64,000 nt of DNA from Deltaproteobacteria bacterium (GCA_030591565.1 JAUVAU010000001.1:30572-94571), one strand, 5' to 3'; counted from the stretch's first letter, positions 26,234 to 45,802 are shown. Numbers and translations are program-made. Notes: a model not told the origin generated them from the letters alone.

Positions 26234-26321
26234 TTACTTAATTATTTTAACAGGGGATAAAAAGCGTAAGCTTTTAAGGTAGATAATTTTCAGACAATCT
26301 AACAAGTTGAGGCAATGTAGG

Positions 26322-26389
26322 TTGACTTTCCGCCTGGATTGTATATATTGATACAAGAATTTGTATGAAATAACGCAATATATTGTATG
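26322..26389 (+). promoter_or_regulatory. promoter and operator-like TTGTAT repeats of the AT-rich two-gene island
   Basis: TTGACT (26322-26327), 16 nt, TATATT (26344-26349). Inverted repeat TTGTAT-N6-ATACAA (26339-26356) overlaps the -10. Two more direct TTGTAT copies at 26361 and 26383. Confidence 0.5.
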
Positions 26390-26400
26390 GATATACACAA

Positions 26401-26985
26401 ATGGACTACAGGCTAAACAAAGATGATTTGATGGAGGCGTTGAAGGGGTGGAACAGCTTTCTGGGAAAGAAGATCCACCTAATCGCCTGCGGTGGTACGG
26501 CAATGACCATGTTGGGTGTCAAACCATCCACCAAAGATGTGGACTTCATGGTGCCCAATGTTGGCGAGTATAAATACCTCATAAAGAAACTGAGGTCTCT
26601 GGGCTACAAATCTGTATCCGGTAACGGGTGGCAACGAAAGGGAGAGGATTATCAATTCGATCTTTTTCGGGGTAACAGGATTCATACGACGGAACTGTTT
26701 GAATCGCCATTGGGGGAGGGCAGGCACGAGCCGCTTTTTGAGTTGTCACGGCTCTACATCGGTGTCTTGAATGACTACGACCTCATATCCAGTAAATTGA
26801 TGAGAGGCGACCGGGTAGATTTTGAAGATTGCCTCAAGCTTTTTGAAGCTCACCTCGAAACTATTGACCTGAATCGACTCATCGAGCATTTCAGGGAGCT
26901 CGTTAGCTACGATATTGCGGTAGATAGACTCGCCAAGAATATCGAAATCTTTGTCGAGATGCTGAAAGAAAGAGGTTTGGCATGA
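26401..26985 (+). CDS. nucleotidyltransferase-fold protein (MNT/DUF6036-like)
   Basis: Signature hG[GS]-x13-DhD: IACGG-TAMTMLGVKPSTK-DVDFMV. About 195 aa with a helical C-terminal half. Start ambiguous (ATG 26383 or 26401), with no obvious SD. AT-rich codon usage unlike the neighbours. Confidence 0.6.
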   Translation: MDYRLNKDDLMEALKGWNSFLGKKIHLIACGGTAMTMLGVKPSTKDVDFMVPNVGEYKYLIKKLRSLGYKSVSGNGWQRKGEDYQFDLFRGNRIHTTELFESPLGEGRHEPLFELSRLYIGVLNDYDLISSKLMRGDRVDFEDCLKLFEAHLETIDLNRLIEHFRELVSYDIAVDRLAKNIEIFVEMLKERGLA

Positions 26986-27653
26986 AAGAGCAAGACTTAA
27001 TGGATAATCTCTCGAAACTCGGTCTCACGTTTCTGATGCCTAGCGAAGAGGTTGATGTGAACGAAACTCTGGCTGAAGTAGTCAAGAGCGACGATATGAG
27101 ACTGTGGGAGGGCTTCCCAGTTCTTTTGGCTAACGCTGTCAAGCATAGTGCTTTTTCCATGACTGAGGTTGAATCCGAGCTAAGCATGAAGCAGAGGGAG
27201 TTTTTCCGCGACCTTTTGCTTATGTCGCTGTCCGTATACGCATTTGCCAACCAAGAGTTTTCCTGGTCGAGGAGTTACAAGCAAAAGCTGTCCAGCGATG
27301 ATGGGGAGAGGGTTAAGCAATGGCGAAACTACCTGGCACACGGCCAGCCACTCTCTTTGTCAGGCAGGAAGTTTAGCAGTAGCCGCCTTTTGAAGAACTT
27401 CCGTCTATATGCCTCAGAAGCTGTCAAAAAGGCGAAAAGGAGCAAAGAGCGGCACACAGAACTGTCGCTTGATTACGCTCAATCTCAGCTTTTTACTCCG
27501 AGGCAGAAAGAGATACTGAACAAAAAGCTTGATGGCCTGCGGATGACGAAAACGGAACAAGAGTACTATTCTCGGTCAATCAAAAAAAAAGTAGTTGCAC
27601 TGGCCAACGAGGAGCTTCACGCAATAGCGAAAAGGCTCTTGGAGCAAAGGTAG
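26982..27653 (+). CDS. hypothetical protein with HEPN-like RNxxAH motif and C-terminal HTH-like basic region
   Basis: 223 aa. ATGA overlap with the upstream NTase-fold gene. WRNYLAHG at residues 114-121 (R-x4-H). C-terminus LFTPRQKEILNKKLDGLRMTKTEQEYYSRSIKKKV. Confidence 0.5.
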   Translation: MKEQDLMDNLSKLGLTFLMPSEEVDVNETLAEVVKSDDMRLWEGFPVLLANAVKHSAFSMTEVESELSMKQREFFRDLLLMSLSVYAFANQEFSWSRSYKQKLSSDDGERVKQWRNYLAHGQPLSLSGRKFSSSRLLKNFRLYASEAVKKAKRSKERHTELSLDYAQSQLFTPRQKEILNKKLDGLRMTKTEQEYYSRSIKKKVVALANEELHAIAKRLLEQR

Positions 27654-27860: not shown

Positions 27861-27888
27861 TTGACATGCTTGTAATTGTGTATATATT
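27861..27888 (+). promoter_or_regulatory. sigma-70-type promoter candidate for cysK
   Basis: TTGACA (27861-27866), 16 nt, TATATT (27883-27888). About 45 nt upstream of ATG 27932, which has an AGGAGG RBS. Confidence 0.5.
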
Positions 27889-27931
27889 CCTGATAAGCAA
27901 ATGAGACAACAATTGTCAGGAGGATTATAAG

Positions 27932-28888: not shown

Positions 28889-28924
28889 GCTGGCGTTACT
28901 GATGTAAACCGAGAGGACAAGGTT

Positions 28925-30061
28925 TTGGACATAAAGACACTGCTGGCCCAGGCGGGCAGCCGATCGGACGAGAAAACAGGAGCGCTGTCGACGCCGATAT
29001 ATCAGACGGCGACCTTTCGACACCCTGCGCTGGGCGAGTCCACCGGGTATGACTACTCGCGTAGCTCAAACCCCACGCGGGCCGCGTTGGAAGAGACCCT
29101 CGCCGCGCTTGACGGCGGTGTGGCGGGCTTCGCCTTTGCCTCGGGCATGGCTGCCATCGCCGCTGTTTTTCAGCTCTTTGGCCCCAATGAGCGCGTCATT
29201 GTGACCGAGGATCTCTACGGCGGGACCTTCCGGCTGCTTGAAAAGGTCTTTACCGCAAGGGGGTTGGAGGTCACCTACGTCGACACCTCTTCCTTTGAGG
29301 AGGTGGAGAAAGTCTGGACACCCGACGTCAAGGGGGTGTTCATCGAGATACCCACAAACCCGATGCTCAAGGTGGCCGCGCTACCCCGGATCGCCAAATT
29401 GGCGAAGGAGTCGGGGGCGCTGACGGTTGTGGACAACACCTTTTTGACTCCGGTGCTGTTGCAGCCCCTGGAGCATGGCGCGGATATCGTCGTCTACAGC
29501 GCGAGCAAATACCTCTCGGGCCACAATGATGTGGTTGCAGGTGCGGCGGTGGCGGGCAGCGACGAGCTGGCCGAACGGATTTATTTCTACCAGAACACTA
29601 TCGGCGCGGTGCTGGGGCCCCAGGACTCCTGGCTTGTCCTAAGGGGGTTGAAGACCCTGGCCCTGCGGGTGGAGCGCCAACAGGAAAATGCCCTGGCGGT
29701 CGCCAAATTTCTTGAAAGTCATCCCGCGGTCTCCCGCGTTTACTACCCGGGCCTCCCGGACCACCCGGGCCACGAGCGGCTGCGAGAGTTGTCGACCGGG
29801 TTTGGGGGCATGGTTTCTTTTGAGTTAAAAGACACTGCCCTCGTCCCCCATATCCTTTCCACGATAAAAATATTTCACTTCGCCGAGTCCCTTGGCGGTG
29901 TTGAGTCCCTATTGACCTTCCCGGCAGAGCAGACACATGCCGACATGCCGACCGAGCTTAGAAGCCGTCTGGGCATAACCGACGCGCTGCTGCGGTTGTC
30001 GGTGGGTATAGAGAGCAGTGACGATCTCATTGACGATCTGAGCAAAGCACTTAATGGCTGA
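28925..30061 (+). CDS. Cys/Met-metabolism PLP enzyme (cystathionine gamma-synthase/gamma-lyase family)
   Basis: 378 aa. YSRSSNPTR, DNTFLTP, YSASKYLSGHND (PLP lysine). TTG start with GAGAGGA upstream. MetB versus MccB versus MetC cannot be resolved by eye. Confidence 0.8.
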   Translation: MDIKTLLAQAGSRSDEKTGALSTPIYQTATFRHPALGESTGYDYSRSSNPTRAALEETLAALDGGVAGFAFASGMAAIAAVFQLFGPNERVIVTEDLYGGTFRLLEKVFTARGLEVTYVDTSSFEEVEKVWTPDVKGVFIEIPTNPMLKVAALPRIAKLAKESGALTVVDNTFLTPVLLQPLEHGADIVVYSASKYLSGHNDVVAGAAVAGSDELAERIYFYQNTIGAVLGPQDSWLVLRGLKTLALRVERQQENALAVAKFLESHPAVSRVYYPGLPDHPGHERLRELSTGFGGMVSFELKDTALVPHILSTIKIFHFAESLGGVESLLTFPAEQTHADMPTELRSRLGITDALLRLSVGIESSDDLIDDLSKALNG

Positions 30062-30077
30062 GAGGTAGCCGACAAAG

Positions 30078-31223
30078 ATGGATGAAAAAACCAAACTCCT
30101 GCACGCCGGACCCGACAGGGACCCCCACACCGGGGCGTCGAGCATCCCCATACATCAGGTCTCCACCTACCATCAGGAAGACCCGGTGAAGCTGGGCAAA
30201 TATGACTATGGGCGCGGCGACAACCCCACCCGGTATGCACTGGAGGAATTCGTCGCCAACATGGAGGGCGGCTCCGCCGGCTTTGCCTTTGCCTCTGGTG
30301 TGGCGGCTATCGGGTCGGTGCTGCTCCTTTTTCAGCCAGGCGACCATATCATCGTCACCGAGGATGTGTATGGGGGCACCTACCGGCTGCTCACCAAACT
30401 TTTTGCCCGCTGGGGGCTGGAGGTCACCTTCGTGGATATGGCGGACCCCGACAAGGTAGCCGACGCCATAACCGAGAGCACCAAAGCGGTCTTCGTGGAG
30501 ACGCCGTCGAACCCGATCCTGAAGATCATTGACCTTGAGCGAATTGGTCGCCTCGCGAAGGATAAAGGGCTGGTCTCGATAATCGACAACACCTTCATGA
30601 CCCCCTATCTGCAAAAACCGCTGGCCTTCGGTTTCGACATCGTCATCCACAGCGCCACGAAATTCCTTGGCGGCCACAGCGACCTGATTGCCGGGGTGGT
30701 CGTCGTCGAAGATGAGAAACTGGCGCGCAAGCTGAAATCCATGCAGAACATGTTTGGTGCCATCCTCGGTCCCCAGGACTCCTGGCTGGTGCTTCGCGGC
30801 ATCAAGACCCTCTCGGCGAGGATGGAGGCGCAGCAAAAGAGCGCCGCCGAGCTGGCCGATTGGCTTTCCCTCCAGCCCCAGATAGAGAAGGTCTATTACC
30901 CCACGCTCAAGGGGCACCCGGGCAGGGAGATACATCTTCGACAATCATCCGGCGGCGGGGCAGTGGTCTCTTTCGAGCTGGTCGATGGGGAAGCAGCCCA
31001 AGGTTTTTTAAAGGCCGTCAAACTGCCGCTGGTCGCGGTGAGCCTGGGCGGCGTGGAGTCGATCCTCTCCTACCCGGCCACTATGTCACATGCAGCCATG
31101 ACGCGTGAAGAGCGGCTGGCCCGTGGCATAACCGATGGGCTAGTGCGCCTTTCGGTGGGGCTGGAGGGCGTGGACGACCTGAGAGAAGACCTGCGACAGG
31201 CGCTCTGTTTGACGGACTCCTGA
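30078..31223 (+). CDS. Cys/Met-metabolism PLP enzyme paralog (cystathionine beta-lyase/gamma-synthase family)
   Basis: 381 aa. YGRGDNPTR, DNTFMTP, HSATKFLGGHSD. A paralog of the preceding gene. Confidence 0.8.
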   Translation: MDEKTKLLHAGPDRDPHTGASSIPIHQVSTYHQEDPVKLGKYDYGRGDNPTRYALEEFVANMEGGSAGFAFASGVAAIGSVLLLFQPGDHIIVTEDVYGGTYRLLTKLFARWGLEVTFVDMADPDKVADAITESTKAVFVETPSNPILKIIDLERIGRLAKDKGLVSIIDNTFMTPYLQKPLAFGFDIVIHSATKFLGGHSDLIAGVVVVEDEKLARKLKSMQNMFGAILGPQDSWLVLRGIKTLSARMEAQQKSAAELADWLSLQPQIEKVYYPTLKGHPGREIHLRQSSGGGAVVSFELVDGEAAQGFLKAVKLPLVAVSLGGVESILSYPATMSHAAMTREERLARGITDGLVRLSVGLEGVDDLREDLRQALCLTDS

Positions 31224-32429: not shown

Positions 32430-32458
32430 TTGACGAACATTCAATTTGAAAATATAGT
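32430..32458 (+). promoter_or_regulatory. sigma-70-type promoter driving the riboswitch candidate
   Basis: TTGACG (32430-32435), 17 nt, TATAGT (32453-32458). The predicted transcription start falls at the 5' strand of the P1 helix. Confidence 0.6.
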
Positions 32459-32459
32459 T

Positions 32460-32572
32460 TCTGCCAGCTTCGAGTGGCCCGGTCTAACGGTTTGAAAAAA
32501 CCCATGACCACCCACCGATGGGCTCTGGGGGAAACTCTTCGGCCTCCCGTGTTTGGAAAGAAGCTGGCATGA
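32460..32572 (+). ncRNA. Moco/Tuco (molybdenum/tungsten cofactor) riboswitch candidate
   Basis: A 10-bp closing helix: TGCCAGCTTC (32462-32471) pairs with GAAGCTGGCA (32560-32569). Internal hairpins GGTTT-GAAA-AAACC and CCCAT...ATGGG. Blocks CTTCGAG, GCCTCCCG and GGAAAG resemble what I recall as conserved Moco-motif blocks (CUCCGAG, CCUCCC, GGAAAGG). A tungstate/molybdate-type binding protein lies downstream. Confidence 0.55.
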
Positions 32573-32678
32573 CGCAGGAACCCCTGCGCGCCGCAATCGG
32601 CACGAGCTTTTTGCCTGCGATGGCCGTTGCCTTCTTTCCTTGGTGTTATTTATCATTGCCACTGGCAGAGGAGGAACC

Positions 32679-33512
32679 ATGTCGCAGCGTTTTACCGCCA
32701 TCGTGTTTGTAACCCTAGTCCTTTTTTCTTTCCCCACAACCCTTTTCGCTGATCTGTGCTTGAAGATGAGCACCACCACCAGCACCGATAACTCCGGGCT
32801 TCTTTCGGTTTTGCTGCCTCCCTTTGAAGAGGCGAATGGTTGCAAGGTCGGGGTCATTGCGGTGGGCACCGGCAAGGCCCTGAAGCTCGGGGAAAACGGC
32901 GACGTCGATCTGGTCTTCGTCCATTCGCGACCGGCCGAGGACAACTTCGTCGCTGGTGGTTTCGGCGTTTACCGCCAGGATGTGATGCACAACGATTTCG
33001 TGCTGGTCGGTCCCGCCGAGGACCCTGCGGGGTTGGGCGGGGCTGGAGACGCCAACGGGGCGTTTACGCTGCTGGCAAAGGGCGCAGCCCGTTTTGTTTC
33101 ACGCGGGGATGATTCGGGGACAAATAAAAAGGAGCTGGCCCTTTGGAAGGCAGCCGGGGTTGTCTCGGATGGCGAGCGGCCCGACGGCGAGTGGTATGTG
33201 GAGTCGGGCCAGGGTATGGGCCAGGTGCTCGCAATCGCCGACGAGATGCGGGGTTATACCCTTTCCGACCGGGGCACCTTTATCGCCTATGGCGACAAGG
33301 TGGAGCTGTCGGTGGTTTTTGAGGGCGACCCGGCGTTGTTTAATCCCTATGGGATAATTGCGGTGAACCCGGAAAAACATCCCCACGTAAATAACGAGAT
33401 GGCGAAGAGGCTGATCGATTATATAACCGGGCCCCAGGGCCAGAAGCTCATCGGCGAATACAGGGTCAAGGGTAGGTTGCTTTTTTATCCCGATGCGATT
33501 AAGCCCGAATAG
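32679..33512 (+). CDS. tungstate/molybdate-type periplasmic substrate-binding protein (TupA-like, PBP2 fold), no adjacent permease or ATPase
   Basis: Start trimmed to ATG 32679 (GAGGAGG RBS). Signal peptide MSQRFTAIVFVTLVLFSFPTTLFA. Motifs STTTSTDNSGLL, AVGTGKALKLGENGDVDLVFVH, VMHNDFVLVGP. Confidence 0.65.
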   Translation: MSQRFTAIVFVTLVLFSFPTTLFADLCLKMSTTTSTDNSGLLSVLLPPFEEANGCKVGVIAVGTGKALKLGENGDVDLVFVHSRPAEDNFVAGGFGVYRQDVMHNDFVLVGPAEDPAGLGGAGDANGAFTLLAKGAARFVSRGDDSGTNKKELALWKAAGVVSDGERPDGEWYVESGQGMGQVLAIADEMRGYTLSDRGTFIAYGDKVELSVVFEGDPALFNPYGIIAVNPEKHPHVNNEMAKRLIDYITGPQGQKLIGEYRVKGRLLFYPDAIKPE

Positions 33513-33641: not shown

Positions 33642-34361
33642 ATGGCTAAGATTCTGGTTGTCGATGATGAGATTGATCTGCTCGAACTGGTTAAGTACAA
33701 TATGGAGGTCGCCGGTTACGAGGTGGACACCGCCGCCACCGGCAATGGCGGGCTTGAAAAGGTGGGCGAGTTCGGGCCGGACCTCGTCGTTCTGGATGTG
33801 ATGCTGCCCGACCTGACCGGGTTTGAAGTGTTGAGAACGCTGCGCCAATCGGCGTTGACCAGGGACATTCCCGTAATAATGCTCACCGCGAGGGGCGAAG
33901 AAGCCGACGTGCTGGGTGGCTTTGAGCTTGGCGCCGACGACTATATGACCAAGCCGTTTAGCCCCCGCGAGCTGGTCGCCAGGGTGCGGGCGGTGCTTGC
34001 ACGGGGGGCGGGCGTGGAGACCAAGCCCAAGACGCTCAACTTCGACGAGCTTGAGATCAATAGGGACTCGCACCAGGTTTTCGTCGATGGCAGGGAGATA
34101 CCCCTGGCCCCGCAAGAATACAAACTGCTGGTGTTTTTGGCGATGCATCCGCGCCAGGCTTTTTCACGCGAGAGCCTCCTGGCCCACGCCTGGGGTCCGG
34201 ACGTATACTTGGAGCTGCGCACCGTGGATGTGCATGTGAGAAGATTGAGAGCCCACCTGAATAAGCAGCCCACAGCGCCGAAATTCATCGAAACGGTGAG
34301 GGGCGCGGGCTATCGCTTCAACCCCAACCCCAACAGTGACCCGGAGTCGGTTAAAAAGTGA
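33642..34361 (+). CDS. phoB: OmpR/PhoB-family response regulator
   Basis: MAKILVVDDE...TRDIPVIMLTARGEEADVLGGFELGADDYMTKPFSPRELVARVRAVLAR is strongly PhoB-like. C-terminal wHTH ends RGAGYRF. Confidence 0.7.
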   Translation: MAKILVVDDEIDLLELVKYNMEVAGYEVDTAATGNGGLEKVGEFGPDLVVLDVMLPDLTGFEVLRTLRQSALTRDIPVIMLTARGEEADVLGGFELGADDYMTKPFSPRELVARVRAVLARGAGVETKPKTLNFDELEINRDSHQVFVDGREIPLAPQEYKLLVFLAMHPRQAFSRESLLAHAWGPDVYLELRTVDVHVRRLRAHLNKQPTAPKFIETVRGAGYRFNPNPNSDPESVKK

Positions 34362-36106
34362 AACGTTCAATCCTTTCACGCCTTCTATGGAGCTTCGCCC
34401 TTGTTTTCGCCGTGATGCTGGCTGCCGCCGGGATATTTCTCGAAAAATTCCTGACTGAACGGCACACGGGGCTTCTGCAAAATGAGCTGGAGGTGATCGC
34501 CACGCTGGCCCACACGGCCATTGGAAATGGGGGGGACGATATTGAAAAAGTCGTTAAAAAGTTCGGGCAGGATTCCGGGCTGCGTCTTACGGTAATTGAT
34601 GGCGCGGGGGTGGTGCTTGCCGACTCGGTGGCGGACTCGGAAAAGATGGACAACCACGCTACCAGGGTGGAGATAGCCGGGGCGATAGGTGGCGCCGTGG
34701 GTGTTTCCCAGCGGAAAAGTTCCACCCTTGGCGTGGAGCTGATGTATCTAGCCATACCCACCGCCCCGGTGGTCAGGGCGGCCAAGCCGATGGATGAGGT
34801 CAACGGGATCATCGCCCAGACCAGGAGCCGCATAGTGCTGGCGGGGCTGCTGGCGTTTATGTTGGCGATACTGCTCTCCTATTTTCTGGCGACGCGCTTT
34901 TCGATCAGGCTGAAAAAGATGGAGGTCTTCGCGGGAAAGCTGGCGAGGGGCTTTTACGATGAGAAGCTTGAGGTCCAGAGCGATGACGAGCTGGGCGGGC
35001 TGGAGAGCAGCCTTGACAAGCTGGGCCGGGAGCTTGGCGACTACGTCATGCAGCTCGATAACGATCGGCAAAAGCTGACAACCATAATGGACGCTTTGCC
35101 CGAAGCCGTGCTTCTCTTCAACTCGTCCAGACGCCTCACGGCAGCCAACGCCACCGCCATCAAGCTCCTGAAGCTTACGGCAAGCGCCATGGAGGGTCTT
35201 TCCATCGAGGAAGTTTTCCGGATTCCGCAGGCGTTGAAGCTACTGGGCGAGGCGCTTGAGGGTGGGAAAGATCGATCAACGCCCAAGCGAATACTCTGGC
35301 CCGAGCCGCTTCTTGATCTTGAGTTGAGCGTGCACGATGTCACCGACACCAGCGGCGACGGTGGTGTCCTGGTCATCCTCAGGGATGTCACCAGGCAGGC
35401 GCACCTGGAACAGGTGAGGACCGACTTCATCACCAACATGGCCCACGAGCTTCGCACGCCGCTGACCGCCATACGGGGCTCGGCCGAGACGCTTTTGGAC
35501 AATGAGGACCACAGCCCCGAGATCGGCAGGCGGTTTCTGGGCACGATTAGCCGCCACTCGCTGCGGCTGGGTAATATCCTCTCCGACATCTCGCAACTGG
35601 CGCATCTCGAAAGCGGGGTCGCGCCGGTTGAGGTTGACGCTCACGACCCCAGGCGCGTGCTTCAAGAAGTTGCCGAGCTGTTTCGGGCCGAGGCGGAGAA
35701 GGCTGAGATCGGGTTGACCGTGGATTTTTCGGGTATCCCGGGCGAGTTGATCTCGGATCAGGAGAAAATCGAGTCGATACTGGTCAATCTTGTGCAAAAC
35801 GCCATCCGCTATACACCAGCCGGGGGCCAGGTGAAGCTCATCGGACGAAATACCCCTGATGGTAACGTGATATATGAAGTGATTGATTCCGGCATCGGTA
35901 TCCCCCCCTCGGAGCTTCCCAGGGTCACCGAGCGTTTCTACCGGGTGGACCCGGGCCGCTCGCGCGAAAAGGGTGGCACCGGGCTTGGCCTCTCCATCGT
36001 CAAGCATCTGATCTCGGTACTTGACGGGGAACTTGAGATCGAGAGCGAGCATGGCCACGGCACCACCGTCCGGGTCAAATTACCCTCCCTAAACACAGAT
36101 CGCTGA
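34358..36106 (+). CDS. phoR: PhoR-like sensor histidine kinase
   Basis: 582 aa. TM, periplasmic segment, HAMP and PAS. H-box NMAHELRTPLTAIRGSAE. Also RFYRVDPGRSREKGGTGLGLSIVKH. 4-nt overlap with phoB. Confidence 0.65.
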   Translation: MKRSILSRLLWSFALVFAVMLAAAGIFLEKFLTERHTGLLQNELEVIATLAHTAIGNGGDDIEKVVKKFGQDSGLRLTVIDGAGVVLADSVADSEKMDNHATRVEIAGAIGGAVGVSQRKSSTLGVELMYLAIPTAPVVRAAKPMDEVNGIIAQTRSRIVLAGLLAFMLAILLSYFLATRFSIRLKKMEVFAGKLARGFYDEKLEVQSDDELGGLESSLDKLGRELGDYVMQLDNDRQKLTTIMDALPEAVLLFNSSRRLTAANATAIKLLKLTASAMEGLSIEEVFRIPQALKLLGEALEGGKDRSTPKRILWPEPLLDLELSVHDVTDTSGDGGVLVILRDVTRQAHLEQVRTDFITNMAHELRTPLTAIRGSAETLLDNEDHSPEIGRRFLGTISRHSLRLGNILSDISQLAHLESGVAPVEVDAHDPRRVLQEVAELFRAEAEKAEIGLTVDFSGIPGELISDQEKIESILVNLVQNAIRYTPAGGQVKLIGRNTPDGNVIYEVIDSGIGIPPSELPRVTERFYRVDPGRSREKGGTGLGLSIVKHLISVLDGELEIESEHGHGTTVRVKLPSLNTDR

Positions 36107-37162: not shown

Positions 37163-39172
37163 TCAGCTATCCTGCCTGGCCTCCTCGATGATTGAGACCG
37201 TAAGTCTGGAAGGCTTCTCCCCCAAAAGCTCCATGGATTTTTTGCATCTTTCAAAGGTACGCAGCGCCTGGCTCCGGTTGCCGCGCCGCAGCTGGCAGTT
37301 TATCAATTTGCGAAAGTGAAGCTCGCAGGAGGAGTCCGCGAGCGCCGCCTTTTCATAAAGCTGCTCCGCCTCGTTCCACCGCTCCATTTTTTCCAGAAAA
37401 TCTCCCGCTATTCTGACGCCCTTTTCAAGCCTGGAAAGCAAGCGTTGCTCGAAGGTGGTTGAGGGCGATTCGCTTTGGTGGCGTCCCATGAAGGGGCCAT
37501 TGAAGTGGTCTATCGCTTCCAGCGCCTTCTGGGCCGCCGCTGAGCTTGTCTGCGCCTTTTCCGCTTCGCCTATTAGCCGCAAAAAGGCCCAGGTATCCAG
37601 CCAGACCTTCCGGTGGTTCAGGCTCACCAACCCGTTCTCCACCAGTATCGCCTCTTTGGTGCCCAGTAGTTTTCTAAGACGGTGGAGGGTAACCGAAAGG
37701 GATTGCTGCGCGCAGTCGCCATCGGCATCGGGCCATAGCTCAAGGGCCAGGGAGATGCCATCCACCTTGCGCGCCCCCGCCTCGATAAGCGCCCCCAAAA
37801 GCTCAAGCGGCCTTTTTTGCGCCTTGTTGGTGAACCTGATCGGATCATCCCCCCTTACGATCTCCAGCCTTCCAAGGGTGTAGATGCGTACCTGCCAGGG
37901 CCAGTTCTCCATCGTCACAGGCGGCGCCTTGGGTTCCAGCTTGCGCTGCTTGACGAGATCGAGGACGGTCTGGGTCTCTATCCCAAAGGTTAGCGCCTGT
38001 AGGCAAAGGGAGGCCATAACCGAGCTGCGCCAGAGGGGCGAGCCCGCAATCCCACGCTGCCGGGAAAAGCTAAAAAGCTCTTTCAATGATTCTTTAAGTC
38101 CCGGCTCGATGCCCCCCTTTTTCACCGCTGCAAAGGCGGCGGCCGTCTGGCACATGAAGGTATAGATATTGGGCTGGACGTAGTCGGCCCTCTCGCGCAC
38201 CTCCCGTATAAGGGTCTCGGCGCTTCTATAGTCCCCCAGCTCTATCAGTACGTGGGCTTTTAGCAGGCTGGCGGTCGCGATGCGGTCGAACCCCCCTGTC
38301 TTCTGGCCGCTGTCGATGGCTGATTGGGCATGGGTTTGTGCAAGCTGGAGTTGGCGGTTTCCAAGGGCTTGGAGTCCTTTGAGGAACTGGAGTCGGGAAA
38401 AATTCCCGGGCAGGTGAGCCTGTGGCGACTCTTCCAGCCGGGCGATCTGAGTTTTTGCGCTCTTAAGGTCATTTTCCGCCAAGGCGGTGCAGGCCAGCTG
38501 GACCCGGAAAGGGAACTCAAGCCGAGCCGCCCCGACCGCCCCGGTCGCTGTCAGCAGTGCGAGTCCCTCGGCGCCTTTGGTTTTGCAAGCCTCCACCTCG
38601 CCGGTGAAGTTGTAGAGGGTGGCCTGGGCCAGCAGGGAGAGCAGCACGACGCGCCCGGAAGCCTCTTTTGTCGATGAAAGGGCTTTGAGGGAGTCAGCGG
38701 CCACCGTCGCCTTGGCGGGCTGGGCTATCGCCAGACAATAATTCACTTCGCTGCACAGCGTCAGGGCAGCCAGCTCCATGTCGCCCCACTTTTCAAAACC
38801 ACTGAGTGCAGTATCGCGCCATTTTTCAATGTCGGGATGAAAGGGGCTGCAATGGGTCAGCATGCAAAAAGCGCGAGCCACGATGGGAAAATCGTTCTTG
38901 AAAGGGGTTTCTTCCAGCGCTTCGAGAAGCTCTTTTAGCTTTCTCTGTGTCTGGTTAACGTCAACCCAGAGAGTCGGTGAAGCCCCCATATTGGCAGCAC
39001 CCTCCACCCACCAGCAGCAGCACGCCGCCAGCTGCTCGTCGAGCATCCGGCAGAGCTTCGAGCGCTCCAGTGTCCGGGCAACCGCCGGTCTCGTTGTCTT
39101 GGCTGGTTTCGTCAAAATAAAGTCACCCCGGTTAAACAAATATGGTGCGTAAAGGAGCAAAAAGCCTTGCAT
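37163..39172 (-). CDS. transcriptional regulator with N-terminal TPR/MalT-like helical repeats and C-terminal OmpR-type wHTH plus BTAD (SARP-like) module
   Basis: 669 aa. C-terminal VRIYTLGRLEIVRGDDPIRFTNKAQKRPLELLGALIEAG...SVTLHRLRKLLG is a wHTH. It is followed by VWLDTWAFLRLIGEAE...ELHFRKLINCQLRRGNRSQALRTFERCKKSM, which is BTAD-like. Confidence 0.6.
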   Translation of the reverse strand: MQGFLLLYAPYLFNRGDFILTKPAKTTRPAVARTLERSKLCRMLDEQLAACCCWWVEGAANMGASPTLWVDVNQTQRKLKELLEALEETPFKNDFPIVARAFCMLTHCSPFHPDIEKWRDTALSGFEKWGDMELAALTLCSEVNYCLAIAQPAKATVAADSLKALSSTKEASGRVVLLSLLAQATLYNFTGEVEACKTKGAEGLALLTATGAVGAARLEFPFRVQLACTALAENDLKSAKTQIARLEESPQAHLPGNFSRLQFLKGLQALGNRQLQLAQTHAQSAIDSGQKTGGFDRIATASLLKAHVLIELGDYRSAETLIREVRERADYVQPNIYTFMCQTAAAFAAVKKGGIEPGLKESLKELFSFSRQRGIAGSPLWRSSVMASLCLQALTFGIETQTVLDLVKQRKLEPKAPPVTMENWPWQVRIYTLGRLEIVRGDDPIRFTNKAQKRPLELLGALIEAGARKVDGISLALELWPDADGDCAQQSLSVTLHRLRKLLGTKEAILVENGLVSLNHRKVWLDTWAFLRLIGEAEKAQTSSAAAQKALEAIDHFNGPFMGRHQSESPSTTFEQRLLSRLEKGVRIAGDFLEKMERWNEAEQLYEKAALADSSCELHFRKLINCQLRRGNRSQALRTFERCKKSMELLGEKPSRLTVSIIEEARQDS

Positions 39173-39255: not shown

Positions 39256-41997
39256 TCAGAACCTTGAGGATTGCCACTTCAGAATAAGGTTTTTATCACA
39301 AAACGCTTTCGCCTCCGCGAGGGTGTGTACGCCGCGCGCTGCAAGCAGTGGGAGCATTCTTACAAAGATCTGCGCCGTCGTCTTGGCGTCGCCCAGCGAG
39401 GTGTGCCGACCTTCCACCTCTACGCCCATGCGCAAAGCCATGGCTTCGAGGTTGTGCCCCTCATGGTCGCCGTGGACGCCGTAGGAGATGAAAAGAGTGT
39501 CGAGCACCTGGTTTTCCACCATGGGTTGCGCCGCTCTGGTGGTTTCCACCTCCAGCATCTTGATGTCGAAGGCGGCGTTATGCGCCACCAGCACCGCATC
39601 GCCTACCCACTCGACAAATTTCGGCAGCACCTTGCCTGCGATGGGGGCATCGGTGACCATCTCGTCGGTGATCTTGTGAATCGATATGGAGATGGGCGGT
39701 ATCTTCATCCCAGGATTGACCAGCGCGTGAAAGGTGTCTGCCTTTAACACCTTCGTGCCGCGCACGCGCACCCCTGAAATGGAGACGATGCGGTCGCCCT
39801 GGGAGGGGTTGAGACCGGTGGTCTCGGTGTCGAAGACGACGAACTCCAGTTCGGAGAGCTTCGCGTCCAGCTGTGCCCCGGTGACCTTGCCGGGACGCCC
39901 CATGAAGAGGTCGAAATCGTAGAACTCCACCTGATCGTCCGCGATATGAGGCTCGTCCCGATACTGGGAAACCACCGAGGCCTTGCTCATTGCAAGGCGC
40001 ACCTCGAACCCCTCAGGGGTCTTGCGGGTCCATATCTCTCCCCGGTTGTTCTTGACGGCTGTTTCCAGATTCACGGGCTCTTCACCCTCAGGAGAGATCT
40101 GTATCGCGTAAAGCTCGGCGGTGGCTATCTCCCCCTTGGTCACGAGGCGGAAGGTGACGACGACGGAATCCTCCTCGATCTCCAATGCTGTCTCGATGGG
40201 GGTCAAGCCGTCGGATTTTGAAGCGGTCCATTTCAGCGCCGCGCCCATTACCGCGACCCAGGTGAAGGGTTCGACCGCCACATGGGGAGCTTGCTCTTCG
40301 GGCATCGTCAGCTTGACGAAGGTCCCCTCCTCCATCGCGAGCGCCTCTTCAAGGAGCTCCCTGGGGTCGGAGGGCTGGATCGGCCAGCGGGCAAACTGGA
40401 TAGCGGGGGTAGTCAGCTCAAGCCCTTCGAGCACCTTTACCGATCTCTCCGCTTCAGCGGCCAACCCCTGCAGGAATGATTGGCGTCGTTTGGGGTCCAG
40501 ATCGGGGCGCCGCGCCAGGATCTCGGTCAGCGAGTGGATCGAGGCCATCGGTCCCTTGAGGCTGGCGGGGAGGTTGCGCAGCATCTTCTCCGCCTCTTTT
40601 TCACGGACAGCGTCGGCGGACACGTCGCGGAAGACGAAGAGAAAGCCTGCGCGGTCGCCCGAGGGGTCGGGCAGCGGTGTGATGATGCCGGTGAGCACGG
40701 TGGAATCGGCGAGGGGGAAGAGCACTCTTTCCACACCCTGGCGGCCCTCATCCCATGCCGAGCGCAGACGCCTGAGATAGAAGTTGAGCCGCGCCCTGGG
40801 CAGCAGACTCTCCAGCTTGATTCCGATGCCGGAGTGGGGTCCGGTCTTCAGCACCCCCCTGGCCCGGGGATTCATCAGGAGCACTTCGCCATTCTCATTT
40901 GCCGCGACAAGGCCTTCGGCCATCGTGCGCAGAAGGATCGCCAGCCGGTTGCGCTCCCCTTCAAGGCTCTTGGTAACCTGCTCCAGCCGGTGTTCCAGCT
41001 CGCCGTAGGAGTTTTGTAGCGACTCGGCCATATGGTTGAAGTCGTCGGCGAGCCCTTCGAGTTCGTCGCCGGTATCGACCACGATGCGATGCGAAAGGTT
41101 GATCTTGGAGATGATCTCCGCGCCGCTCCTGAGTACCTTTATCGGGCTAAGTATCTTGTTTCCCGTCTTCCAGGAGAGGGCCAGGACCATGATGCCCAAC
41201 ATCACGAGCATGATGCTCGCCTGGGTGGCGGCGAAATTGAAGTCTTCCAGTATGTCGCTTTCGCGCAGTACCACCATCACGCGCCACCGGCTGCTGGCTT
41301 TGCCCCAGCTTTTGCCTACCACCTTTTTGCCGAGGTAGTAGCCTTCGCCGCCTTGCACGAAGGTGTTCCAGGCTGAGGTCCCCCATAAAAAGTGGTGGGG
41401 AATTTGGATCGGGTCCGGTCCCGAGCTGGCCAGAATGCCAGTGGGCGTTACCAGGGAGGCGAGGCCTTTGTGGTCACGCCGAAAGCGTGCTATCTGCTCG
41501 AAGATCATATCGGGAGAGAAGCGTGCGACCACTGCCCCGACCGCCTTGCCGCCGGCTTGCAATATGGGCGCGCTGCACTGGATTGAGCCGTCATCGCCCA
41601 GTACGGTGTGGAGCAACTCCTCGGCCGGCAGCTTTGCCCCTGGTATGATTTCTACCTCAAGGGCGAAGGGTTGCAGTTTTTGGGCGGTTGCTATGAATTC
41701 TTCGGGGAAGGGGGCGGCTTTTGTCAGGTGACGGCGTACCGGCAATGTGACAGCCAGCTTTTGGGTCCAGTCGGACAGCCGCTCAATCTCATCCTCCACC
41801 TGATAGGCGAGAAGTGCCGCTTCCTGGGCCAGGGACTCGCCCATAAACTCCCTTACGTCTGCTTTTGCGATGTGGAAGAGCACCACCATCGAAACCGAGA
41901 AGGGCAAAACCGCTAATGTCACCATCGTCAGGACGACTCTGAAACCGAGCCGTTTGAACAGTGGCAGCTTGGCGGACGACGGTGTTTTGGGGTTCAT
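39256..41997 (-). CDS. transmembrane sensor: periplasmic domain, HAMP, PAS, degenerate histidine-kinase-like core, C-terminal DEDDh 3'-5' exonuclease (DnaQ/epsilon-like)
   Basis: 913 aa with two TM segments. HAMP (SPIKVLRSGAEIIS...GDELEGLADDFNHMAESL). PAS (LLRTMAEGLVAANENGEVLLMNPRA). The H-box-equivalent is PASLKGPMASI, with Ala in place of the phospho-His. The N-box-equivalent is GAALKWT, with Asn lost. Exo I is VVFDTETTG, Exo II is VAHNAAFDIKML and Exo III is HTSLGDA. Confidence 0.8.
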   Translation of the reverse strand: MNPKTPSSAKLPLFKRLGFRVVLTMVTLAVLPFSVSMVVLFHIAKADVREFMGESLAQEAALLAYQVEDEIERLSDWTQKLAVTLPVRRHLTKAAPFPEEFIATAQKLQPFALEVEIIPGAKLPAEELLHTVLGDDGSIQCSAPILQAGGKAVGAVVARFSPDMIFEQIARFRRDHKGLASLVTPTGILASSGPDPIQIPHHFLWGTSAWNTFVQGGEGYYLGKKVVGKSWGKASSRWRVMVVLRESDILEDFNFAATQASIMLVMLGIMVLALSWKTGNKILSPIKVLRSGAEIISKINLSHRIVVDTGDELEGLADDFNHMAESLQNSYGELEHRLEQVTKSLEGERNRLAILLRTMAEGLVAANENGEVLLMNPRARGVLKTGPHSGIGIKLESLLPRARLNFYLRRLRSAWDEGRQGVERVLFPLADSTVLTGIITPLPDPSGDRAGFLFVFRDVSADAVREKEAEKMLRNLPASLKGPMASIHSLTEILARRPDLDPKRRQSFLQGLAAEAERSVKVLEGLELTTPAIQFARWPIQPSDPRELLEEALAMEEGTFVKLTMPEEQAPHVAVEPFTWVAVMGAALKWTASKSDGLTPIETALEIEEDSVVVTFRLVTKGEIATAELYAIQISPEGEEPVNLETAVKNNRGEIWTRKTPEGFEVRLAMSKASVVSQYRDEPHIADDQVEFYDFDLFMGRPGKVTGAQLDAKLSELEFVVFDTETTGLNPSQGDRIVSISGVRVRGTKVLKADTFHALVNPGMKIPPISISIHKITDEMVTDAPIAGKVLPKFVEWVGDAVLVAHNAAFDIKMLEVETTRAAQPMVENQVLDTLFISYGVHGDHEGHNLEAMALRMGVEVEGRHTSLGDAKTTAQIFVRMLPLLAARGVHTLAEAKAFCDKNLILKWQSSRF

Positions 41998-42362
41998 CCC
42001 TGCAAAAGGCCTCGCATGATAGTAAGCAGTTCAGCGGCTTGAAAGGGTTTGGTCACATAGGCGTCGGCACCAAGTTCAAGCCCCTTTTTCCGTTCCAGCG
42101 GTTGTCCCTTGGCGGTGAGCATGATGACTTTAGGCGAGTCGTCGCCAGCTTCTTTCAGCTCGCGGCACACGGCGTAACCATCTTTTACTGGCATGGAAAT
42201 ATCCAGCAGCACCAGGTCGGGCTTGAAAGCTTGCGCCGTACGTAGCGCCTCTTCACCATCGGTGGCGGTTTTTACCTCGAACCCCTCTTCCTCAAGGATG
42301 AACTCAAGGGACAAGAGGATGTTGGGCTCGTCATCAACCGCGAGGATTTTGTGCGCGCTCAT
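41994..42362 (-). CDS. single-domain (REC-only) response regulator
   Basis: Start trimmed to ATG 42362 (MSAHKILAVDDEPNILLSL...DLVLLDISMPVKDG...TAKG...KPF), 122 aa. ATGA overlap with the downstream sensor-exonuclease gene. Confidence 0.85.
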   Translation of the reverse strand: MSAHKILAVDDEPNILLSLEFILEEEGFEVKTATDGEEALRTAQAFKPDLVLLDISMPVKDGYAVCRELKEAGDDSPKVIMLTAKGQPLERKKGLELGADAYVTKPFQAAELLTIMRGLLQG

Positions 42363-42494
42363 TGGTCTTTCCGCCTTGCTAAAAGTACAATGGAAAAATT
42401 CCCCTAATAAACCGTATAAAACCATATTTCGGGTAGAATTTCCAGCTTGGCTTGCGCGGTTGACACCGGGGGGCTGCAGCTTTACCATCCCGCC

Positions 42495-43094
42495 ATGGAT
42501 TTTAATGCTGAAATGGGCAGGCAGGCGAGGGTGCGTTCTCGTCCACGCGGGGTGAAAAGCTACCTCGTGTTTTTCACGACCCTCGTGGTCTTCAGTCTTA
42601 TCATAGCTTTCTGGGTTTCTTCCATACGTGAGCAGCGGGCAATTGAAATTGGCCGGGCGCGTATGGCCGAGGCGACCGAGCTGGTGCGCGTGGGCCGCGC
42701 CCACACCGAGGCCGGACGCTTTGACCAGGCGACCGGGGCGATGGAGAAGGCCCTCACCCTCCTTGAGGCGGACAAAAATATCAGGAGCCACCCCTCATAT
42801 CCCGTTCTGGTTGCCGATCTGGCGGTCAGCCACTTGAGTCTGGAAAATCCCGATAGTAGAGATGTGGCGAGGGCCGTAGCCCTTTTAACGATTGCGTGGG
42901 AAAATTCTTCCGGTAGCGACGCCAAGTTCAGGGCGCGCCTTGCCCGCGACCTGGGTTTTACCACGGGGATCGGCGGAGAGTTGAAGACCTCGCTTTCCTG
43001 GTACCGCGAAGCCCTCAAGCTCGACCCCGACGACACGAACACTCCCAAGCGCATAAAGATGTTGGAACACGCCGCCACAATCGCCCCAAAGTAA
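42495..43094 (+). CDS. membrane-anchored TPR-like protein
   Basis: Start probably ATG 42495 or 42513. TM segment YLVFFTTLVVFSLIIAFWVSS. TPR-like helices (AGRFDQATGAMEKALTLLE..., LSWYREALKLDPDD). Confidence 0.5.
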   Translation: MDFNAEMGRQARVRSRPRGVKSYLVFFTTLVVFSLIIAFWVSSIREQRAIEIGRARMAEATELVRVGRAHTEAGRFDQATGAMEKALTLLEADKNIRSHPSYPVLVADLAVSHLSLENPDSRDVARAVALLTIAWENSSGSDAKFRARLARDLGFTTGIGGELKTSLSWYREALKLDPDDTNTPKRIKMLEHAATIAPK

Positions 43095-43272: not shown

Positions 43273-43821
43273 ATGACCAAAAAGAAAAAAGAGCCTAAAG
43301 CCTCTAAACAGGCGCTGGAAGATAGCGAGTCTGGAGTTGATGTGACCCGGGAAGCTGCCAAGGGCCAGCCAGCAGGCCAGGAGAGCGCAGAGCTTATTGC
43401 GAAGCTGCAGAGCGAGCTTTTGTACCAGCGCGCCGAGTTGGAAAACTTCAAGAAGCGCACCGAGCAGCGTTATCTCGAATCATTGAAGTTCGCAGCGGAG
43501 CCTGTGATGAACAGCCTGCTGCCTGTTATGGACAACCTGGAGAGGGCTTACGAACACGCTTGTGCCGAGGGAGCCGATGTGAAGTCGGTCGCCGAGGGGC
43601 TCAGCCACATCGTCAACCAGCTTTTAAATGCGTTGGAAAATAATGGCGTTGAGCTTGTTGACGCAATGGGCGAGAAGTTCGATCCCAACAAGCACGAGGC
43701 GCTGGGTCAGGTTCCCGGCGAAGAGAACAACCTCGTGGCGATGGTCCACGAAAAAGGCTACACCCTGAACGGCAAGCTGCTCAGACCGGCAAAGGTCTTC
43801 ATCACCAGGGTTGCCGAGTGA
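43273..43821 (+). CDS. grpE: nucleotide exchange factor GrpE
   Basis: 182 aa. Motifs: LLYQRAELENFKKR, LPVMDNLERA, FDPNKHEA. Confidence 0.9.
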   Translation: MTKKKKEPKASKQALEDSESGVDVTREAAKGQPAGQESAELIAKLQSELLYQRAELENFKKRTEQRYLESLKFAAEPVMNSLLPVMDNLERAYEHACAEGADVKSVAEGLSHIVNQLLNALENNGVELVDAMGEKFDPNKHEALGQVPGEENNLVAMVHEKGYTLNGKLLRPAKVFITRVAE

Positions 43822-43897: not shown

Positions 43898-45802
43898 TTG
43901 AACATGGGCAAAATAATAGGAATAGATCTTGGCACCACCAATAGCTGTGTTGCGGTGCTGGAAGGCGGCGAACCCGTCGTCATCCCCAACGCCGAGGGCA
44001 GCCGCACCACACCCTCGATGGTCGCCATAACCGAAGATGGTGAAAGACTGGTGGGCCAGCCCGCCAAGCGTCAGGCGGTGACCAACCCCAGCAACACCGT
44101 TTTTGCAATCAAGCGATTGATCGGAAGGAAGAACAAGGACCCCGAAGTTGAAAAAGACAAGGGGATGGTCTCCTACAAGATCGTCGAAGGTTCCGCCGGA
44201 GACGCCTGGGTGGAGGTACGCGACAAGAAGTACAGCCCCGCCGAGGTTTCCGCCTGGATTCTTCAGAAGATGAAGCAGACGGCGGAGGATTATCTGGGCA
44301 GCGAAGTGACCGAAGCTGTCATTACCGTACCTGCGTATTTCAATGACAGCCAGCGCCAGGCCACCAAGGACGCCGGACGCATCGCCGGGCTGGACGTCAA
44401 GCGCATCATCAACGAGCCCACCGCAGCGGCGCTCTCCTATGGCCTCGACAAAAAGGCGGAGCTCAAGATCGCGGTGTTCGACCTTGGCGGCGGTACCTTT
44501 GATATTTCCGTATTGGAAATAGCCGAGGGTGTCTTTGAGGTCAAGTCCACCAATGGCGACACCTTCCTGGGTGGCGAAGACTTTGACAAGAAGATCATCG
44601 ACTACCTCGCCGACGAGTTTAAAAAGGAGCAGGGCATCGATCTTCGCGGCGACAAGATGGCGCTCCAGCGGCTCAAAGAAGGTGCCGAGAAGGCCAAGAT
44701 GGAGCTTAGCTCCACGATGGAGACCAACGTCAACCTGCCCTTCATCACCGCCGACCAGTCGGGCCCCAAGCACCTCAATATCCGCCTGACCCGCGCCAAG
44801 TTCGAGCAGCTCTGCGAGGATCTCCTTGAACGGCTGGTGGGACCCTGCAAAAAAGCGTTGGCCGATTCGGGTTTCAGCCAGAGCCAGATCGACGAAGTGA
44901 TCTTGGTGGGTGGCATGACCCGCATGCCCAAGGTGCAGGAGAAGGTCGAGGCGATCTTCGGCAAAAAACCCAACAAGAGTGTCAACCCCGACGAAGTGGT
45001 CGCGGTGGGCGCAGCGATTCAGGGCGGGGTGCTGACCGGCGACGTCAAGGATGTGCTCCTTCTCGACGTCAACCCCCTCTCCCTGGGCATCGAGACGCTG
45101 GGCGGCGTATTCACCCGCCTGATCGAGAAGAATACGACTATCCCGTGCCGCAAGACCCAGGTTTTTTCCACCGCCGAGGACAACCAGGCGGCGGTGTCGA
45201 TCCACGTGCTCCAGGGCGAGCGCGACATGGCGAGCTATAACAAGACGATCGGGCGCTTTGAGCTTGTGGGCATACCCCCGGCGCCCCGCGGCCTGCCCCA
45301 GATCGAGGTTACCTTTGACATAGACACCAACGGCATCCTGCATGTCTCCGCCAAGGATCTCGGCACAGGCAAGGAGCAGTCGATCCAGATCAAGGCAAGC
45401 TCCGGCCTCAGCGAAGAAGAGATTGCGCAGATGGTCAAGGACGCTGAACTTCATGCCTCCGAGGATAAGGAGAATCGCCAGAGGGTTGAGGAGCGCAACA
45501 AGCTCGATGGCCTGATCTACTCCACCGAGAAGAGCATGGGCGAGTTTGGCGACAAGCTCGATGCGGAAACCCGCTCCTCCATCGAAGCGGCCCTGGCCGA
45601 GGGCAAGAGTGCGATGGAAGGCGAGTCGGTCGATGCGATCAAGGCGGCGTATGAAAACCTCACCACCGTCTCCCACAAACTGGCCGAAGAGATGTACAAG
45701 AAGGCCCAGGACGAAGCCGGAACCACGGGCGATGACGCAGGCGGGGCGACTGGTGGGGACGACGATTCGGTGGTGGATGCCGATTTTGAAGAGGTCAAAT
45801 AA
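43898..45802 (+). CDS. dnaK: molecular chaperone DnaK (Hsp70)
   Basis: 634 aa. Motifs: [36 protein letters not shown]. Confidence 0.97.

Follow-up and report, generated by a model that had tools for sequence, protein, structure and literature searches.

A degenerate histidine-kinase core fused to a DEDDh exonuclease and paired with a receiver-only regulator in a deltaproteobacterium and in many other bacteria

Introduction

The output of a two-component system is almost always transcription, the turnover of a second messenger or a further kinase, and dead kinase cores acting as readers of a phosphorylated receiver have been studied mainly in one protein, DivL. Here we describe a pair of genes in a stretch of 64,000 nucleotides from a Deltaproteobacteria bacterium (GCA_030591565.1, JAUVAU010000001.1:30572-94571), referred to below as “the window,” in which a gene for a receiver-only response regulator runs into one for a 913-residue membrane protein with a degenerate histidine-kinase core and a predicted DEDDh 3'-5' exonuclease at its C-terminus. 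A preliminary description, made from the sequence of the window alone, had drawn attention to this pair. Two described systems come closest to it. The first is DivL of Caulobacter crescentus, a pseudo-kinase proposed to read the single-domain regulator DivK~P with a reversed signal flow (PMC4211667).

The second is the acetate-switch set CrbS/CrbR (MxtR/ErdR) of Vibrio and Pseudomonas, which brings together an SLC5-type kinase, ActP/SSF, acetyl-CoA synthetase (Acs), a cNMP-CBS-DUF294 protein and an RNase_T exonuclease (PMC9927547; bioRxiv 10.64898/2026.09.07.749794; PMC5715377). In P. putida the operon of PP_0354 (a cNMP-CBS-nucleotidyltransferase) and PP_0353 (an RNase_T exonuclease) is a direct, strongly dependent target of ErdR; the function of the two proteins is stated to be unknown, and their homologues in P. 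aeruginosa adjoin actP and yjcH (PMC9927547; bioRxiv 10.64898/2026.09.07.749794). This exonuclease/DUF294 pair is among the genes that depend most strongly on CrbS/CrbR (MxtR/ErdR) (bioRxiv 10.64898/2026.09.07.749794). Kinases of the SLC5/STAC type are themselves preceded by a small, translationally coupled open reading frame (ORF), cbrX (PMC6591292, PMC9100948).

The fusion described here combines a DivL-like pseudo-histidine kinase with an exonuclease of the kind found in the CrbS/CrbR regulon. It is real and widespread, and is a combination of these two themes rather than a new category of its own.

Gene pair and domain layout

The 913-residue fusion protein is encoded on the minus strand at 39256..41997, stop codon included (ORF reading, Pfam and NCBIfam), and the receiver-only response regulator lies immediately upstream on the same strand at 41994..42362, its ORF ending at 41994 and its most plausible methionine, at 42362, giving a protein of 122 residues. 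The stop codon of the receiver gene and the start codon of the fusion gene overlap by the four nucleotides ATGA (...CAG GGA TGA / ATG AAC CCC). The receiver is CheY-like (Pfam Response_reg, PF00072, E = 8.7e-31) and has the acidic pocket, the phospho-acceptor aspartate and the Thr/Lys switch residues of that family: D10, D11, D54 (the phospho-acceptor), T83 and K105 are all intact, and are kept across 47 partner receivers of relatives. The receiver looks functional and is translationally coupled to the sensor gene; among relatives, the overlap between receiver and fusion genes is likewise 4 nt in 19 of the 46 pairs measured. An Rfam scan of the 64-kb window gave no match to a riboswitch or to any other RNA element at the receiver/fusion locus, and a consensus scan for promoters and terminators gave counts at the chance level, which are uninformative about the extent of the operon.

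The fusion protein is a membrane sensor, with two transmembrane (TM) segments enclosing a periplasmic domain, followed by HAMP, PAS, the pseudo-histidine-kinase core and the DEDDh exonuclease, all encoded on the minus strand. A hydropathy scan places TM segment 1 at residues 21–39 (41881..41937), where the AlphaFold 2 (AF2) model is also helical, and TM segment 2 at residues 256–274 (41176..41232). The periplasmic domain between them, residues 40–255 or ≈216 residues (41233..41880), belongs to no Pfam family and is predicted by AF2 (predicted local distance difference test, pLDDT, ~80) to consist of a long helix and then two β-sheet units. Apart from the window protein, only about 10 close relatives have this domain; typical family members have a loop of ~15 residues between the TM helices instead. 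HAMP occupies residues 280–328 (41014..41160; Pfam HAMP, E = 2.2e-8) and PAS residues ~355–461 (40615..40935; Pfam PAS_4 at 361–461, E = 7e-7), PAS models also matching ~24 of the 62 other family members scanned. The two TM segments, the periplasmic domain, HAMP, PAS and the ATGA overlap had all been described beforehand, and the hydropathy scan, Pfam and a direct reading of the DNA bear this out.

In its N-terminal part the protein has the TM-sensor-TM-HAMP-PAS layout of WalK/PhoR/NblS-type kinases, continued by a region like their dimerization and histidine phosphotransfer (DHp) hairpin, and the NCBIfam models of the kinases WalK, NblS and PnpS align to residues 261–525. There they end: unlike those kinases, the window protein departs from the alignment at the DHp, has neither a phospho-histidine nor HATPase_c, and carries an exonuclease at its C-terminus.

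The kinase-like core

Two consecutive parts make up the core, a pseudo-DHp helical hairpin at residues ~463–536 (40390..40611, minus strand) and an α/β domain resembling a catalytic and ATP-binding (CA) domain at residues ~540–672 (39982..40380, minus strand). The Pfam HisKA match in the window protein is below threshold (E = 0.29, residues 475–526), and HATPase_c is matched neither in the window protein nor in any of the 62 members scanned. A profile of residues 462–712, built from 18 family members, gave weak matches to kinase DHp regions in the PDB (6nb0, E = 0.046; HK853, E = 0.35), and because this sequence-only search was marginal, a comparison of folds was needed. The AlphaFold model of residues 462–712 (pLDDT 78.8) is predicted to be a two-helix hairpin followed by an α/β domain, and the probability-1.0 matches that Foldseek finds for it in the PDB are all DHp-CA cores of histidine kinases: HK853 (E = 6e-10), an EnvZ chimera, YycG/WalK, CpxA, DesK and the pseudo-kinase DivL (4q20).

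The losses can be followed column by column when 73 family members are aligned. In the window protein the H-box equivalent reads LPASLKGP, and the PDB profile alignment sets the phospho-histidine of the real kinase 6nb0 (SHDLRSPL) opposite A478 (codon 40564-40566), the same register in which the preliminary description had seen the histidine replaced by alanine. Across the 73 members, this column holds E in 44, D in 6, R in 5, Q in 4, K in 3, A in 2 and histidine in 0, and the DHp-like helices contain no other conserved histidine. The CA-like part lacks both an asparagine-rich column that could be an N-box and any G1 or G2 column (DxGxG, GxGxG), and in the AF2 model merely ~24 residues span the position of the ATP lid. 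The core is thus predicted to retain the fold of a class I sensor kinase, with neither a phospho-acceptor histidine nor any ATP-binding motif, and on re-examination by alignment and profile scans the earlier reading of a DHp/CA-like region that has lost H-box histidine, N-box asparagine, G1 and G2 holds in each of these points, no intact phospho-histidine having turned up elsewhere in the DHp-like helices. The profile alignment, the fold comparison and the column statistics are three independent checks, and they agree.

That the protein might nevertheless be an active histidine kinase, using a non-canonical histidine and a divergent ATP site, could draw on the retained DHp-CA fold and on a single histidine-rich column in the CA-like part (column 651, His in 62 of 73 members, although the window protein has Asn there). 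Set against the missing DHp histidine, N-box asparagine and G1/G2, the ~24 residues at the ATP lid, and HATPase_c matched in 0 of 62 members, we find this scarcely credible. A working kinase with a displaced histidine or a divergent ATP site was accordingly rejected on the column statistics and the profile scans.

The part of the pseudo-kinase that is best conserved is DHp helix 1 directly past the H-box position (residues 481–492, 65% column identity). In solved complexes of kinases with their regulators, such as HK853-RR468, this region of helix 1 after the H-box is the regulator contact site. As an observation on the H-box column itself, Glu or Asp stands at the position of residue 478 in 50 of the 73 members, the window protein being one of only two with Ala, and an acidic residue at the former phospho-site might mimic the phosphorylated state.

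DivL and the window family are alike in having a DHp-CA core without the phospho-acceptor histidine, that is, a kinase-core fold with no phosphorylatable histidine. They differ in what has taken its place and in what is attached: DivL has Tyr at the histidine position, has no enzymatic output domain and acts on the kinase CckA, whereas the window family has Ala or Glu at this position, has lost the ATP-binding motifs and is fused to a DEDDh exonuclease.

The exonuclease domain and its linker

The C-terminal domain (residues ~717–890; 39328..39849, minus strand) is, as judged from sequence, a member of the PolC/epsilon-like branch of DEDDh 3'-5' exonucleases with its catalytic set complete. Pfam RNase_T (PF00929) matches residues 720–878 over the full length of the model (1–164 of 164, E = 1.5e-33), NCBIfam models of DEDD/PolC/epsilon exonucleases match the C-terminus with E of about 1e-42, and the nearest PDB entries by sequence are the PolC exonuclease 2p1j (E = 1.9e-24), PolC itself, epsilon 1j53 (E = 1.6e-16) and the DinG exonuclease. 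All three motifs are intact, as had been claimed: Exo I with D723 and E725 (DTETTG), Exo II with H806, N807 and D811 (HNAAFD) and Exo III with H865 and D870 (H-x4-D), each of these residues being kept in 73 of 73 members in the family alignment. The domain thus shares its DEDDh catalytic set, and its best sequence matches, with the proofreading domains of PolC and DnaQ (epsilon); unlike these, it is membrane-tethered, has no polymerase attached or adjoining, and has a PEFYDFDLF leader and a C-terminal helix of its own.

The leader is the linker between the pseudo-kinase and the exonuclease, QVEFYDFDLF in the window protein (residues 689–698; 39904..39933, minus strand) and RPEFYDFDLF in the family consensus. 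Outside the exonuclease, no other stretch is as well conserved across phyla (88% column identity). Free-standing relatives of the exonuclease also carry it, and AF2 predicts the linker to be disordered (pLDDT 31–37 over residues 675–703). At the other end of the domain, the family alignment shows a conserved C-terminal helix and tail (residues 891–913, ending ...AKAFCDKNLILKWQSSRF; 39259..39327, minus strand), which also aligns in the free-standing relative P0160.

Two other identities for the nuclease can be weighed on this evidence. The first, raised in the preliminary description, is an Orn-like nanoRNase that degrades pGpG, pApA or linear oligonucleotides arising from cyclic-dinucleotide signalling; such activity is chemically plausible, and Orn belongs to the same DEDDh superfamily. 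The best matches are, however, of PolC/epsilon/DinG type, Orn and RNase T models are missing both from the top 25 NCBIfam matches and from the PDB matches, and no GGDEF, EAL, HD-GYP or cyclase gene occurs among the recurrent neighbour clusters of relatives annotated with Pfam (see below); the suggestion has gained no specific support, and we regard it as very unlikely. The second is a nuclease of anti-phage defence or DNA repair that a two-component system controls, in line with the resemblance to proofreading exonucleases and with two PADLOC models, generic DEDDh and the candidate PDC-S48, that match the exonuclease domain. Yet these matches cover the generic domain alone, no defence-system partner genes were found, the conserved neighbours are genes of transport and metabolism rather than of defence or repair, and neither window composition nor Pfam annotation of the flanking ORFs gives any sign of a mobile-element context around the locus, so that this reading appears more improbable still. 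Among known defence systems none was accepted for the locus, PADLOC having given generic domain matches only.

Distribution of the family

The architecture is not confined to this genome. A word-indexed search retrieves 32 further clusters that share it, at 41–53% identity, from assemblies of Deferrisomatales, Geobacter and Desulfuromonadaceae; they fall into two length classes: about 10 proteins of ~905–920 residues contain the periplasmic domain, as the window protein does, and most of the remainder, of ~705–725 residues, have a short loop between the TM helices in its place, with a few intermediates of ~830 residues. With one genome taken per bacterial species, at least 525 loci in several phyla encode the fusion of pseudo-kinase and exonuclease, and because it recurs in hundreds of genomes, the architecture is far beyond what chance would give. 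We retrieved 80 of these loci, of which 4 belong to the close subfamily and 76 are more distant, matching over residues ~260–913 at 26–32% identity. The distant members are mostly 700–790 residues long, with two TM helices ~15 residues apart. Their hosts are found in the Gamma-, Beta- and Alphaproteobacteria (Competibacter, Accumulibacter, Zoogloea, Sulfuritalea, Thiothrix, Pseudomonas, Colwellia and Serpentinimonas), in the Desulfobacterales, Chloroflexota and Nitrospirota, and in one actinobacterium. The HAMP-like, PAS and DHp-like parts are kept across phyla.

A HMMER search of 1.84 billion representative proteins with a profile of the pseudo-kinase gives 528 matches (~528 clusters at 50% identity). 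The full-length matches are nearly all proteins of 700–730 residues, matched at ~260–515, which leaves ~200 residues for the exonuclease. The dead-kinase module is therefore essentially private to the exonuclease fusion. The exonuclease domain together with its leader motif, searched alone, has more than 2,299 relatives.

Literature searches on the fused architecture returned nothing relevant and no characterized member was found, which is the part of the earlier suggestion of novelty that stands; the architecture itself is not rare, its at least 525 loci having passed under generic annotation. Family members are named “exonuclease domain-containing protein,” “HAMP domain-containing protein” or “DNA polymerase-3 subunit epsilon,” or are unnamed.

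Gene neighbourhood of relatives

To describe the context of the fusion gene, all ORFs within 7 kb of it in the 80 genome loci were clustered, and the recurrent clusters annotated. A receiver-only gene is present in 66 of the 80 loci, as a rule immediately upstream of the fusion gene and in the same orientation; a TM-rich kinase, with HisKA and HATPase_c after a long TM-rich N-terminus, in 56, with an ORF of ~74 residues preceding the kinase in 52; a CBS-DUF294 nucleotidyltransferase, usually straight after the fusion gene, in 53; an SSF transporter, often with a small subunit of ~106 residues, in 35; and Acs in 14. In the close subfamily the order is fixed in 5 metagenomic loci: the receiver (123 residues, overlapping), the fusion, a two-TM peptide of 62–63 residues and a kinase of ~1055 residues, with DUF294 nucleotidyltransferase genes flanking the set in 3 of the 5.

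The neighbour kinase of these relatives has ~12 TM helices, then GAF, HisKA and HATPase_c. With its number of TM helices, weak similarity to SSF and a preceding ORF of 62–74 residues, it resembles the cbrX-cbrA arrangement (CbrA/CrbS); it carries a GAF domain and is not a hybrid kinase. This SLC5/STAC likeness, drawn from TM count, SSF similarity and the small ORF, is a property of the kinases beside relatives and not of the window.

Free-standing exonucleases lead to the same set of genes. The closest, among the matches listed, are P0146 and P0160, with 50–51% identity across the entire domain and its EFYDF motif; the similarity begins exactly at that motif, and before it these proteins have a simple N-terminal TM segment and no sensor module. 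Their genes adjoin DUF4212 and SSF or CBS-DUF294 and SSF genes. In one such locus, L007, an ORF of 123 residues without a Pfam or NCBIfam family (5628-5999), downstream of DUF4212 and SSF, ends 1 nt before the free-standing exonuclease gene, in the position held by the receiver gene in fused systems.

As with PP_0353/PP_0354, then, the RNase_T/DEDDh exonuclease of relatives is tied to genes for DUF294, ActP/SSF, Acs and an SLC5-type kinase. The Pseudomonas exonuclease is short, free-standing and transcriptionally controlled by CrbR, whereas in the window family the exonuclease is fused to HAMP, PAS and the pseudo-kinase and paired with a receiver-only protein. Fusion and receiver-only partner together imply that the exonuclease would, in this form, be under post-translational control by phospho-signalling at the membrane. 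The conserved context of SLC5-type kinase, DUF294, SSF and Acs points to control of carboxylate uptake.

Several recurrent features of the neighbourhoods can be added. Two copies of the fusion gene lie within ~20 kb of each other in some loci of Burkholderiales and Gammaproteobacteria (L022, L074 and L084), with DUF294 and SSF genes between the copies and, in L022 and L074, a receiver gene for each copy. Three clusters of ORFs belong to no Pfam family: one of ~140 residues between kinase and receiver in 13 loci (for example L083, 8168-8590), one of ~271 residues after DUF294 in 12 loci (L017, 9614-10429), and one of ~310 residues near or within the kinase gene in 41 loci (L085, 2727-3659), the last of which may be no real gene but a spurious alternative frame in GC-rich DNA.

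A model for control of the exonuclease

The best model that these comparisons allow is that a kinase scaffold has been repurposed so that signals and the receiver protein would control an exonuclease. The preliminary description had proposed as much, and its proposal gains support from the receiver gene found upstream in so many of the related loci (66 of 80). We envisage that the two proteins form a signalling module that acts through a nuclease and not through transcription. The pseudo-kinase core would provide a dimeric scaffold and would also sense the receiver by docking with it, with a preference for the phosphorylated form, much as proposed for DivL and DivK~P; in relatives, the adjacent bona fide, transporter-like kinase would phosphorylate the receiver; and binding of the receiver, together with input through HAMP and PAS, would reposition the exonuclease by way of the conserved flexible PEFYDFDLF linker and so switch its activity. 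For this receiver-gated model as a whole, the role in carboxylate control proposed below included, we put the chances at about even.

The fused exonuclease may share the job of the free-standing, membrane-anchored exonucleases beside DUF294/SSF genes, an arrangement of genes that is also that of the PP_0353/PP_0354 operon in the CrbS/CrbR regulon (PMC9927547). By analogy, this job is probably the trimming or removal of a nucleotide-containing substrate tied to the control of carboxylate (acetate, pyruvate, propionate) uptake. Because the domain is near the proofreading exonucleases, 3' ends of DNA or RNA suggest themselves as substrate; because the DUF294 partner is so persistent, so does a nucleotidyl mark or tail.

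The latter possibility can be developed into a cycle of writer and eraser, which refines the receiver-gated model and does not replace it. Here the exonuclease would remove a nucleotidyl mark or short tail that a GlnD/GlnE-like DUF294 protein adds to a protein or RNA, at a rate set by the inputs of the pseudo-kinase and receiver. CBS-DUF294 occurs in 53 of the 80 related loci and also adjoins one free-standing relative, and DUF294 proteins, unlike GlnD, have no removing domain detectable in Pfam scans. By chemical reasoning, a DEDDh enzyme frees a 5'-nucleoside monophosphate (NMP) from an O-P bond, and a Tyr-NMP adduct has the same bond. We know of no DEDDh enzyme that de-nucleotidylates proteins, however, the 64-kb window has no DUF294 gene, and in 27 of the 80 loci there is none within the flanks. 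DUF294 itself is grouped, by Pfam match and in the literature, with the protein nucleotidyltransferases GlnD and GlnE (PMC3710099). It is thus a possible but doubtful reading that the exonuclease is the eraser of an undescribed cycle of nucleotidylation or tailing; and a similarly doubtful one that a phospho-relay from transporter-like kinase through receiver to dead core would set its rate and so tune the uptake or activation of carboxylates (acetate, pyruvate or propionate).

Several observations weigh against the receiver-gated model and its link to carboxylates. AF2 gives low confidence to the linker and no defined interface between exonuclease and pseudo-kinase. In the window itself, tblastn and Pfam annotation of the flanking ORFs find no kinase, DUF294, SSF or Acs gene adjoining the pair, so that the argument from context is borrowed from relatives; what the window protein itself displays is its relatedness to the free-standing exonucleases. 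The SSF-like character of the neighbour kinase's N-terminus is weak (pairwise E = 3e-6 and 1e-3; no Pfam match), and the likeness to PP_0353 is one of Pfam family and gene neighbourhood. Finally, mutants in PP_0353 and PP_0354 have only mild phenotypes on pyruvate and propionate (PMC9927547; bioRxiv 10.64898/2026.09.07.749794), and the physiological role may therefore be subtle.

The first of these observations also fits a passive scaffold, in which the degenerate core only dimerizes and tethers a constitutively active exonuclease while the receiver signals elsewhere. Membrane location alone may indeed suffice for the enzyme, as the free-standing relatives are anchored by a plain N-terminal TM segment. 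A mere tether would, on the other hand, not be expected to keep its HAMP-like, PAS and DHp-like parts across phyla, nor to have an adjacent and often translationally coupled receiver gene, and we consider the passive scaffold unlikely.

Surroundings of the locus in the window

Tblastn with two DUF294 proteins of relatives found no DUF294 in the whole 64-kb window, and with the small ORF and SLC5-type kinase of relatives it found only generic similarity to kinases and receivers. Since neither a kinase gene nor a DUF294 gene adjoins the pair in the window, phosphorylation of the receiver there would have to come from a kinase encoded at another site. The closest relative from a genome (locus L014, 52% identity) has a soluble GAF-HisKA-HATPase_c kinase of 460 residues downstream, so that the loci form a series from the transporter-fused kinase through the soluble kinase of L014 to the window with no adjacent kinase at all. 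The window copy is a derived version, which has gained its periplasmic sensor domain of ~215 residues.

Where relatives have the small ORF and the kinase, the window has a co-directional gene 83 nt downstream of the fusion gene (37163..39172, minus strand) for a protein of 669 residues, whose N-terminal two-thirds are TPR-like and whose C-terminus is a winged-helix and BTAD (SARP-type) module (Pfam BTAD, E = 2.3e-7, weak Trans_reg_C, TPR). It has no homologue in any of 90 related loci, and its membership of the system is uncertain. With the start chosen here the sequence matches no exact entry in the protein collection, so the annotated start may differ. On the other side, divergent from the receiver gene, lies an ORF of 215 residues for a TPR protein (42447..43094, plus strand; Pfam TPR_2), which opens with TTG and whose true start may lie further downstream. 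A TPR gene divergent from the receiver gene is found in L014 too (8706-9290; tblastn, 27% identity), and again membership of the system is uncertain.

Beyond it, the genes flanking the locus are of the ordinary housekeeping kind. On this side there are two ORFs on the plus strand, of 182 residues (43273..43821) and 634 residues (43898..45802), which by eye we take to be grpE and dnaK. Toward the opposite flank, 27932-31223 (plus strand) encodes a PALP enzyme and two tandem pyridoxal phosphate (PLP) enzymes of Cys/Met metabolism. A molybdenum/tungsten cofactor (Moco) riboswitch at 32456-32580 (plus strand; 48.3 bits against an Rfam gathering threshold of 36) stands at the 5' end of a PBP_like_2 solute-binding gene (32553..33512), and from this position the protein is more likely to bind molybdate or tungstate than to be PstS; the true start of the gene is probably downstream of the listed TTG. 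It is followed by genes for an OmpR-type regulator (33642..34361) and a PAS kinase (34358..36106). At 26001-28000 the GC content falls to 0.465, as against ~0.58 elsewhere in the window, and within this stretch lie a DUF6036 nucleotidyltransferase-like ORF (26383..26985) and, overlapping its end, an ORF of 223 residues without a family (26982..27653); it may be a small acquired island of toxin-antitoxin type.

Significance

What sets the family apart from other two-component systems is that the whole of it, over several phyla, ends in an exonuclease, the kinase fold having been kept and the kinase chemistry given up. It is prominent in acetate specialists: Geobacter relatives, Accumulibacter, Competibacter, Zoogloea, Thiothrix and Desulfobacterales. 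For the study of dead kinase cores as readers of phosphorylated receivers it offers a natural test case, being a second and much larger family in which the core may play this part. The fusion also gives a biochemical handle on the unexplained pair of exonuclease and DUF294 protein, and makes of it a testable problem in signalling. If the reading as an eraser is true, the terminal output of this two-component pathway would be a hydrolase of nuclease type with a covalent nucleotide mark as its target, and a function would be assigned to PP_0353/PP_0354 of the CrbS/CrbR regulon.

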